From NCBI GenBank assembly GCA_965204115.1, contig OZ241963.1, positions 596,622-660,621 on the forward strand: DNA of 64,000 nt. Direction: 5' to 3'. Shown here in pieces: positions 18,460 to 19,663 of this stretch. The stretch comes from Minisyncoccota bacterium (GTDB taxonomy: Bacteria; Patescibacteriota; Minisyncoccia; Phycocordibacterales; JABAAK01). The position numbers and the translations under genes are program-made. Position 1 is the first letter of the stretch. Each line of letters opens with the position of its first letter. Below the pieces are notes generated by a model that was not told where the DNA came from, searched no databases, and worked only from the letters and a program-made list of their open reading frames with translations.

Positions 18460-18581
18460 GAGGTTGTTGTAGAATGTTTGTGTAGTGTGGTATACTGATA
18501 TCAATAGACAGGTGGAGGTGGAGGTTGTTGTAGAATGTTTGTGTAGTGTGGTATACTGATATCAATAGACAGGTGGAGGTG
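18460..18581 (+). repeat. perfect tandem duplication of a 61-bp promoter-containing unit (2 copies)
   Basis: The unit gaggttgttgtagaatgtttgtgtagtgtggtatactgatatcaatagacaggtggaggtg occupies 18460-18520 and again 18521-18581. Each copy holds TGgTATACT and ggtggaggtg. Confidence 0.9.
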
Positions 18582-18592
18582 TCGGAAATGGT

Positions 18593-19120
18593 ATGGACAC
18601 AGAAGCAAAAACAAATACAACACTTTCTGCTATGGATGTGGCAAGGCATGTCATCGCTGCATTCTATGGCAAGGGTAAGGAGGTTGATGAAAGGGTTTCT
18701 GAAGGCATATCAAACCTGAAATTGCAAAAGCTTCTATACTTCTGTCAGGCATTTTCATTAGCTAAGCTGGATAGACCGATGTTTAAAGAAGAATTAAGCG
18801 CATGGAAATACGGACCGGTGGTAAGTGAGGTGTATGAAAAGTACAAAGAACATGAAAATAATCCATTACCCGAGCCGGAACTGCAGGAGGGCGCTACAAA
18901 CTTATCTGATGAAGATAAAGTGGTGGTGCGTGAGGTGTTAGAGATTTTTGGTGGCTATTCAGCGATTCGACTGATGGAGACCACTCATTCACACAAACCA
19001 TGGAAGGATTTAGAAAAGAGGGTGGAAAAAGGAGAGCGAGATATTGTTATCCCACAGGAGGCGATGAAAAAGTACTACAAACCAATGCTATCCGTAGAGG
19101 AAGAGTATGGCAGTAATTGA
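18593..19120 (+). CDS. Panacea-domain (DUF4065) protein, PanA/SocA-like antitoxin candidate
   Basis: The core LKLQKLLYFCQAFSLAKLDRPMFKEELSAWKYGPVVSEVYEKYKEH matches the Panacea consensus (LQKLLYF.Q...L...PLF.E.F.AW..GPV...VY). The region is low-GC. Confidence 0.55.
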   Translation: MDTEAKTNTTLSAMDVARHVIAAFYGKGKEVDERVSEGISNLKLQKLLYFCQAFSLAKLDRPMFKEELSAWKYGPVVSEVYEKYKEHENNPLPEPELQEGATNLSDEDKVVVREVLEIFGGYSAIRLMETTHSHKPWKDLEKRVEKGERDIVIPQEAMKKYYKPMLSVEEEYGSN

Positions 19121-19268
19121 TCCTAATTTTGCAGAAGAGAATTTTAAATATTCATTTAGCAGCGTTAATTATAATCACAAGCCGAAGCTGAAAAGTGTAA
19201 AATTGGAGAAAGAAAACTTTAAAAAAATAGAGAAGGTGTTTGATGTGTTAAAAAAGCTTGAGGTGTAA
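19107..19268 (+). CDS. 53-aa Lys-rich ORF overlapping the end of the Panacea gene (toxin partner candidate)
   Basis: Its ATG at 19107 overlaps the upstream gene's last codons in another frame. The product is MAVIDPNFAEENFKYSFSSVNYNHKPKLKSVKLEKENFKKIEKVFDVLKKLEV. It is not in the ORF track because it is shorter than 60 aa. Confidence 0.25.
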   Translation: MAVIDPNFAEENFKYSFSSVNYNHKPKLKSVKLEKENFKKIEKVFDVLKKLEV

Positions 19269-19334
19269 AGGTGGAGTGAGATTCCAAATTCGGATTTTCT
19301 CTATAGCGGGGCGCAGGCAAATCGGATAAAGGAG

Positions 19335-19529
19335 GTGAAAGACAAGGAGGTGAAAGAGGTTATAAGGAATGCCTTTGCTGATCATGAAACAGATTATTCA
19401 AATGAAGAGACCTATTATCCGTCATACCTTTCAGTGACAAAAGAAATACGCCTTTTCGGCTATCAGTGGAAAGGAGTATTCAAGATAGTTCTTGTAGATT
19501 TTGAGCATGCCGTCCAAAAAAGAAATTGA
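19335..19529 (+). CDS. small ORF (64 aa, GTG start inside a duplicated aaggaggtgaaaga motif); coding status uncertain
   Basis: It is listed in the ORF track. The upstream motif aaggaggtgaaaga occurs twice in tandem (19329-19357). Confidence 0.2.
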   Translation: MKDKEVKEVIRNAFADHETDYSNEETYYPSYLSVTKEIRLFGYQWKGVFKIVLVDFEHAVQKRN

Positions 19530-19663
19530 TTTATATTTATAGGTGATAGAAATCTATCGCAGGAAAGATTTTTGTGATGTTGTGGTTGTGTTGACATATT
19601 TTTTCCTCGTCTCTATGTCATGTCTACACCTTTTTGTTTTAGCAGGGTCTATACTATACCTGT

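Follow-up and report, generated by a model that had tools for sequence, protein, structure and literature searches.

What occupies the AT-rich interval between a 16S rRNA gene and the next core gene of a reduced bacterial genome, and do the small open reading frames (ORFs) found there encode new toxins? The question is raised by a 64,000-nucleotide (nt) stretch of Minisyncoccota bacterium DNA (assembly GCA_965204115.1, contig OZ241963.1, positions 596,622 to 660,621), hereafter the window, in which a gene for a Panacea-domain protein, panA, and two small ORFs lie immediately behind the 16S gene. An earlier reading made from the sequence alone had taken this block for a mobile toxin-antitoxin (TA) module with the small ORFs as candidate toxins. 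We consider it probable that the block is a mobile module of the PanAT type, in which a RelE-fold toxin gene has been inactivated by a nonsense mutation and a Panacea antitoxin gene survives as an orphan behind a duplicated promoter. Related loci are cited below by labels of the form L001.

A Panacea gene and its interrupted partner

The identity of the first gene is clear. Its product matches the Pfam profile PF13274 (SocA_Panacea) along its whole length (profile positions 1-113 of 113, E=8.5e-23, 81.9 bits against a gathering cut-off of 25.7) and phrog_1281 with E=4.6e-44, which bears out the proposal, made from the sequence alone, that this ORF is a Panacea/DUF4065 protein. Because PanA aligns over its full length with 15 homologues (57-74% identity), panA is intact. 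Its match to the NCBIfam model NF047745 (SocA_antitoxin) is partial (E=2e-18) and scores 66.5 bits against an equivalog cut-off of 190, so the protein belongs with the Panacea proteins but is not a SocA equivalog.

Two ORFs, of 53 and 64 amino acids (aa), follow panA. The first begins with an ATG at 19107, within the last 14 nt of panA and in a different frame, and the TA-like two-gene geometry described earlier is therefore real. The two ORFs are not, however, the pair of novel toxin genes that they had been thought to be. They lie in the same frame, and translation from the start of the first to the end of the second meets one internal TAA. When joined, the sequence has 11 homologues of 139-142 aa at 52-80% identity and 99% coverage. 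The 22 codons that separate the TAA from the GTG start of the 64-aa ORF show conservation at the protein level in all homologues, W56, L65, Y66 and G68 being invariant. In the closest relative of this gene, L008 (86.6% nt identity), the sequence reads GAG GTG CAA AGG TGG where the window has GAG GTG TAA AGG TGG, so that a single C to T transition made the stop, Q54*. The homologues carry a sense codon here, for Q, K, R, E or D. The partner of panA is one gene with a nonsense lesion, and the public assembly lists two small hypothetical ORFs where a single interrupted, putative toxin gene stands.

Searches with the separate ORFs against Pfam, NCBIfam, PHROGs and PADLOC had a poor yield: the 53-aa ORF found no match and the 64-aa ORF only weak C-terminal matches. 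Joining the two ORFs solved the problem. The 15-nt repeat at 19329-19357, once seen as a duplicated Shine-Dalgarno (SD)-like motif in front of the 64-aa ORF, codes for the conserved peptide KEVKDKEVKEV. The homologues align there without a gap, which rules out both an insertion and an SD function. An alternative genetic code was likewise rejected: TAA terminates 8 of the 22 long plus-strand ORFs in the window, and TAA, TAG and TGA all terminate long ORFs there, as in the standard code.

The ratio of nonsynonymous to synonymous substitution rates (dN/dS) is 0.15-0.25 across the partner family in both halves of the gene, and 0.25 between the window and L008. Purifying selection has thus acted on the whole gene, and the lesion must be recent or, less likely for a substitution, an assembly error. 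A second, independent nonsense mutation is found in the partner gene of L010, where CAG has become TAG at codon 71 while the rest of the frame is intact. A fragment in L017 (P0138) was considered as a third knock-out and discounted, the contig having frameshifts in many genes. In the predicted structure described below, Q54* falls just past the first long helix, so that neither fragment could form the whole fold. Full-length toxin would then not be made in this genome, and panA would survive as an orphan antitoxin.

The pairing of the two genes is conserved. A PanA homologue lies directly upstream of the partner in all loci examined (L001-L007, L009, L010 and L011), with spacings that range from an overlap of 14-20 nt to a gap of up to ~20 nt. 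The two-gene architecture expected of a PanAT system is thus maintained across five distinct contexts, and a paralogous partner subfamily adjoins a second PanA gene in L010. We propose that the block is a two-gene, type II-like module of the PanAT type whose first gene encodes a standalone Panacea antitoxin. The start of the second gene, 14 nt before the panA stop, is probably translationally coupled to panA, and PanA would neutralise the partner by direct binding.

L010 has three Panacea genes within 4.5 kb (288-1137 on the minus strand, 1462-2602 on the plus strand) and resembles a small PanAT island. One of these genes accompanies the 128-aa paralogue of the partner family (FRVFGYQ...IDKNH), and another, of 244 aa, accompanies an unrelated 143-aa protein.

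The cassette and the post-16S slot

The features of the locus are collected in Table 1. The AT-rich character of the block, noted from the outset, is confirmed. The guanine-plus-cytosine (GC) content of 18460-19530 is 0.399, the lowest of all 1,071-nt segments in the 64 kb (mean 0.506, standard deviation 0.031); 0.4% of segments are equally low, and all of these overlap the cassette block. By gene, GC is 0.42 in panA and 0.36 in the partner. The panAT pair lies 7-14 GC points below the local average in all of its hosts.

Table 1. Coordinates of the features discussed, numbered from the first letter of the window
Feature	Position	Strand	Basis or remark
16S rRNA gene	16733..18194	+	Rfam RF00177, 1372 bits; left flank of locus
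Conserved 16S 3' trailer	18195..18331	+	ends in GGAGCAAGAGAAAGTTGT; alignment with L001, L002, L003, L007; blastn against L015/L016
Non-coding element, 83 nt	18361..18443	+	86.7% identical to L015 3866-3948 and L016 1692-1774 (cassette-free relative)
PanAT cassette	18444..19615	+	1,172 nt; L015 has only 'GCTTG'; junctions GTAGCACT/AGATG and CTCTA/TGTCATG
Tandem duplication, perfect, 61-nt unit	18460-18520 / 18521-18581	+	repeat search, 100% identity
panA, intact, 175-aa Panacea-domain (DUF4065) antitoxin-like protein	18593..19120	+	PF13274, phrog_1281, homologue alignment
Partner gene (putative panT), 140 codons, premature stop inside	19107..19529	+	frame holds ORFs 19107-19268 and 19335-19529
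Premature TAA (Q54*) in partner gene	19266..19268	+	CAA in L008
Cassette 3' tail, AT-rich	19530..19615	+	GC of 19530-19663 = 0.34; L008 shares tail up to 19587
Core gene, deoxynucleoside monophosphate (dNMP) kinase-like	19664..20272	+	PF21448 E=2e-9; phrog_139 E=3e-32; right flank, syntenic with L015/L016

The limits of the cassette follow from a comparison with L015 and L016. These are the closest relatives found (16S 99.8% identical, flanking genes ~86% nt identity), and both lack panAT. Homology to them covers 16475-18331 (the 16S gene and its trailer) and 18361-18443, and resumes at 19616 with blastn identities of 85.7-87.6% over the dNMP kinase, prolyl-tRNA synthetase (ProRS), an RNase T-like gene and a Big_5 protein. 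These blocks place the cassette at 18444-19615. No terminal repeats were seen at its junctions, and its DNA similarity to other panAT loci is restricted to the two genes. In L015 (3303-3860) and L016 (1129-1686), the trailer and the 83-nt element are separated by a 185-aa HD_4 gene (PF13328, E=2e-11), as against only 29 nt in the window, which points to reciprocal presence and absence of accessory genes at this locus.

Four genomes whose 16S genes are 94.8-96.7% identical to that of the window (L001, L002, L003 and L007) also have panAT downstream of the 16S gene and on the same strand, with outer flanks that differ from those of the window and among themselves. More distant Paceibacterota/Kaiserbacteria genomes have the pair in other places: ahead of rplJ/rplL in L004, next to an AAA_15/AAA_21 ATPase in L009, within the L010 island, which has a DUF3800 gene besides its three Panacea genes, and between rpsB-tsf and prfA in L011. 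Absence from L015 and L016 with clean junctions, together with these other contexts, supports the view that the cassette is an accessory, mobile unit. The sequence-only reading had called a mobile TA-like module at an rRNA locus unusual. The mobile character stands, but the placement is not unique, being shared by the four congeners.

Variation at this position is seen at close range in L001 and L007, which come from one sample and have 16S genes that are 99.9% identical. Their flanks are 96-100% identical, whereas identity is only 78-85% from mid-panA to the 3' end of the partner gene. Sharply bounded divergent segments or indels occur at L001 coordinates 3001-3731, 4732-5328, ~6627 and 8486-9085; a Fic gene is present only in L007, and a DUF3800 gene only in L001. 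The C-terminal half of panA thus co-varies with the partner between the two genomes, which is only suggestive of a complex between PanA and its partner.

The stretch between 16S and dnaK in L001 and L007 behaves as a variable island. A 205-aa gene downstream in both genomes was considered as a dNMP kinase and dropped, having no Pfam support.

Judged by these sequence comparisons, the post-16S region in this genus is a variable, cargo-bearing slot. We speculate that it might further be a recombination hot spot for TA and defence cargo in this Paceibacterota genus, although we hold this to be doubtful. A near-invariant rRNA gene would then provide, as an anchor, the homology by which diverged strains exchange the neighbouring cassette. 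Compatible with the idea are the differing post-16S cargo of close genomes (PanAT, HD_4 hydrolase, Fic/Doc and DUF3800), the adjacency of 16S and panAT that is kept though the outer flanks differ, and the divergent panAT alleles inside near-identical flanks in L001 and L007. Were it true, the partner would be a family restricted to the Candidate Phyla Radiation (CPR), N-terminally extended and RelE-like, that is repeatedly knocked out by nonsense mutation. Independently of this idea, genomes reduced to ~0.65 Mb still turn over toxin-antitoxin cargo: gain or loss has occurred at 99.8% 16S identity, alleles have been replaced, and a toxin has been knocked out with its antitoxin kept.

Immediately upstream of panA lies a perfect tandem duplication that was absent from the earlier account. 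Each 61-nt copy contains an extended -10-like box, TGGTATACT (18488-18496 and 18549-18557), and an SD-like GGTGGAGGTG, and the duplication also doubles an 8-bp palindrome (TGATATCA). A TGnTATACT box (TACAAT in L002) recurs 18-22 nt upstream of the panA ATG in L001, L002, L003, L004 and L007. The relatives have a single promoter box, in contrast to two in the window. We propose that the two genes form an operon with its own promoter, the extended -10 box TGGTATACT, which would be doubled in this genome by the tandem repeat. The duplication could be a recent event that raises antitoxin expression, or it could be an assembly artefact.

A TATACT -10 box ~12-22 nt upstream of the ATG, with no SD, appears to lie both before the kinase gene of the window (19640-19663) and before panA in the relatives. 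Such short spacing from promoter to ATG in the lack of an SD suggests that mRNAs of this lineage have very short leaders or none. The panA gene of the window is an exception to the SD-less pattern, with an inserted SD.

The partner protein and known systems

The fold of the partner was predicted with AlphaFold2 in two runs. The first, from 11 sequences, gave a predicted local distance difference test score (pLDDT) of 78 and a predicted template modelling score (pTM) of 0.74; the second, from 21 sequences, gave a pLDDT of 83 and a pTM of 0.80, its five models ranging from 79 to 83. In both models residues 36-52, 57-62 and 81-91 are helical, and residues 105-131 form a C-terminal three-stranded sheet. 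The arrangement that characterises the RelE/ParE fold, N-terminal helices packed on an antiparallel sheet of three to four strands, is thus present, and residues ~35-135 model as a fold of the RelE/ParE superfamily (BECR) behind an N-terminal extension of ~35 aa. With moderate confidence we take the partner to be a RelE/ParE-fold toxin extended at its N-terminus. By these models its fold is not new.

Two weaker relationships point in a similar direction. Every partner member tested matches NCBIfam NF046006, the MAG6450 family named after a Mycoplasma agalactiae protein (E 2e-9 to 4e-5), and the paralogous partner subfamily covers profile positions 15-103 of 103. The scores, at 24-38 bits against a curated cut-off of 40, point to a related family and not to membership. 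MAG6450 itself is a conserved hypothetical protein with no described function (PMC3179502). The C-terminus of the partner, taken from the window fragment, gives a weak, marginal match (E ~1e-3) to the C-terminus of the PADLOC protein NsnC, a region classed as a YafQ-like BECR RNase domain (PMC12065111; PB-BECR1 in the Menshen system). Menshen (NsnABC) was rejected as the identity of the locus: neither NsnA (DUF262/ParB) nor NsnB (ABC ATPase) is nearby, the neighbours being 16S, panA and the dNMP kinase.

Nine residues are invariant in both partner subfamilies (21 sequences): W57, P105, R115, F117, G118, Q120, F125, D131 and H134. Among these, R115, Q120, D131 and H134 are candidate active-site residues and the ones to mutate. 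By analogy with RelE, HigB, YafQ and YoeB, the partner would most likely be a ribosome-acting mRNA endonuclease. We favour RNase activity over gyrase poisoning because of the link to NsnC and BECR and the Arg/Asp/His set, although the data do not decide between a RelE-like and a ParE-like mode.

The family is very small. It returned 11 matches in 1.84 billion representatives and 21 clusters in 5.8 billion, and its named sources are exclusively metagenome-assembled genomes of Candidatus Paceibacterota and Candidatus Kaiserbacteria. Searches of IMG/VR viral contigs, GenBank phages and PLSDB plasmids gave no match to it. A scan of JGI metagenomes added one partner locus, and a scan of GTDB genomes returned two that were already in the set.

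How does the locus compare with characterised systems? PanA antitoxins pair with dozens of unrelated toxin domains, ParE types included, and RelE/ParE folds are among the commonest in the network (Kurata et al. 2022, PMC8832971; Ernits et al. 2023, PMC10440598). A standalone Panacea domain is able to neutralise a toxin directly (PMC10440598). The present locus resembles these PanAT systems in its PF13274 match well above the gathering score, in the overlapping bicistron of a small standalone PanA and a small conserved partner, in its patchy, mobile distribution, and in the modelled fold of its partner, published partners including ParE and other RelE/ParE-fold proteins. It differs in that its partner family has no Pfam model and was seen only in Paceibacterota/Kaiserbacteria-type metagenomic genomes, and in that the toxin gene is nonsense-interrupted in this genome. 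At the level of sequence, the locus qualifies as a PanAT system.

Compared with RelE, HigB, YafQ, YoeB and ParE toxins, the partner is ~50 residues longer and has a conserved N-terminal extension (MPVIDPEFAEExFxYSF...). It has no significant Pfam or PDB sequence match to the RelE/ParE superfamily, and the antitoxin beside it is a Panacea protein, not RelB, HigA, DinJ, YefM or ParD. SocAB, the Caulobacter type VI system whose SocA is the founding Panacea protein, shares the Panacea domain and the NF047745 match. Unlike SocAB, however, the locus has a PanA that scores far below the equivalog cut-off and a partner without similarity to SocB, and there is no evidence of ClpXP-adaptor action.

The partner thus appears to be a new Panacea partner, an unannotated RelE-fold family known from CPR-type metagenomic genomes. 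The locus is marked by this putative toxin family, restricted to the CPR, by an allele in this genome that lacks a full toxin, and by a post-16S position that recurs. Working knowledge of PanAT and RelE is unchanged, and the significance of the locus lies mainly in annotation and comparative genomics.

Rival readings and flanking sequence

Several results weigh against the interpretation of the locus as a PanAT module with a broken RelE-fold toxin gene. Toxicity and neutralisation are inferred from sequence and models, as are RNase activity and promoter function. A Foldseek search of the PDB returned nothing significant (best E=0.27), though the top of the list consists of the same kind of protein. 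Six partner members had no match at E<=1 to the Pfam RelE, ParE, HigB, YafQ and YoeB families, a profile search of PDB sequences with the partner family gave only chance-level matches of kinase type, and the MAG6450 scores stay below their cut-off. Only motif conservation suggests a promoter role for the TGGTATACT box; a generic scan for sigma-70 promoters and terminators found no more sites than in shuffled sequence and missed the TGnTATACT box. Finally, the stop codon is known from a single assembly. This last point leads to an alternative in which the living cell has an intact module and makes the full 140-aa toxin, and the TAA is either a mistake of assembly or consensus calling or an allele present in a minority. 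PanA and the two small ORFs do all come from one 661,662-bp contig, the rest of the partner gene is undecayed, as its dN/dS against L008 indicates, and some related contigs are error-ridden, that of L017 among them. An error is nevertheless improbable, if the least so of the rivals. The change is a base substitution in a non-homopolymer context (GAGGTGTAAAGG) and not an indel, the neighbouring genes of the window are intact long ORFs, and the independent Gln-to-stop change in L010 indicates that toxin knock-outs occur in the family. Indeed, TA modules commonly lose the toxin and keep the antitoxin.

Doubt about the fold leaves room for a different function. The pair might not be a growth-arresting TA system at all but a phage-defence or phage-derived unit, in which the partner is an accessory or effector protein other than a RelE-like RNase and the Panacea protein acts as a sensor. 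Panacea proteins occur widely in phages, where annotation calls them 'phage-associated protein', Ernits et al. [quoted passage not shown] Given that the evidence for a RelE fold is only moderate, such a unit is conceivable, but we rate it as unlikely. The readings that accept the stop codon as a normal feature fare much worse. That the two ORFs are separate small toxin genes, the second with a duplicated SD, agrees with their having start codons and with their separate entries from gene callers in the public assembly (P0142 and P0134). It is very hard to reconcile with their single frame and lone stop, the protein-level conservation of the codons between them, a single protein of 139-142 aa in every good-quality relative, and a supposed SD repeat, AAGGAG, that abuts the GTG with zero spacing and is itself coding sequence. 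Harder still to credit is a functional stop, whether through programmed read-through or a split, two-piece toxin that throttles dosage. Two independent loci do have a lone stop at a Gln codon in a constrained ORF. Yet the positions and codons differ (TAA at codon 54, TAG at codon 71), at least 12 other loci have a plain sense codon at both positions, the loci share no conserved read-through context or recoding signal, each of the three stop codons ends ordinary genes of the window, and C to T at CAA or CAG is the simplest knock-out mutation.

To the left of the cassette, the 16S gene is solo, an Rfam scan having found no 23S gene in the whole 64-kb window. Its trailer can be aligned with the equivalent region of five related genomes, four of which lose homology at ~18331; in blastn against L015 and L016 the trailer is 97.5-98.1% identical, and the matches end at 18331. 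The 83-nt element sits between the 16S trailer region and the kinase promoter, with the cassette starting immediately to its right. Three small hairpins are predicted in it from two sequences only, a number (n=2) at which covariation is uninformative. A permissive Rfam scan of 18150-19700 returned one chance match only (E=0.57), and the generic terminator scan found no convincing intrinsic terminator in the 3' tail of the cassette. Further along the window, a giant ORF of 3,980 codons occupies 46493-58432 on the plus strand, and a low-GC stretch at ~45850-47100 (~0.41), in the region of its start, is the window's second-lowest in GC.

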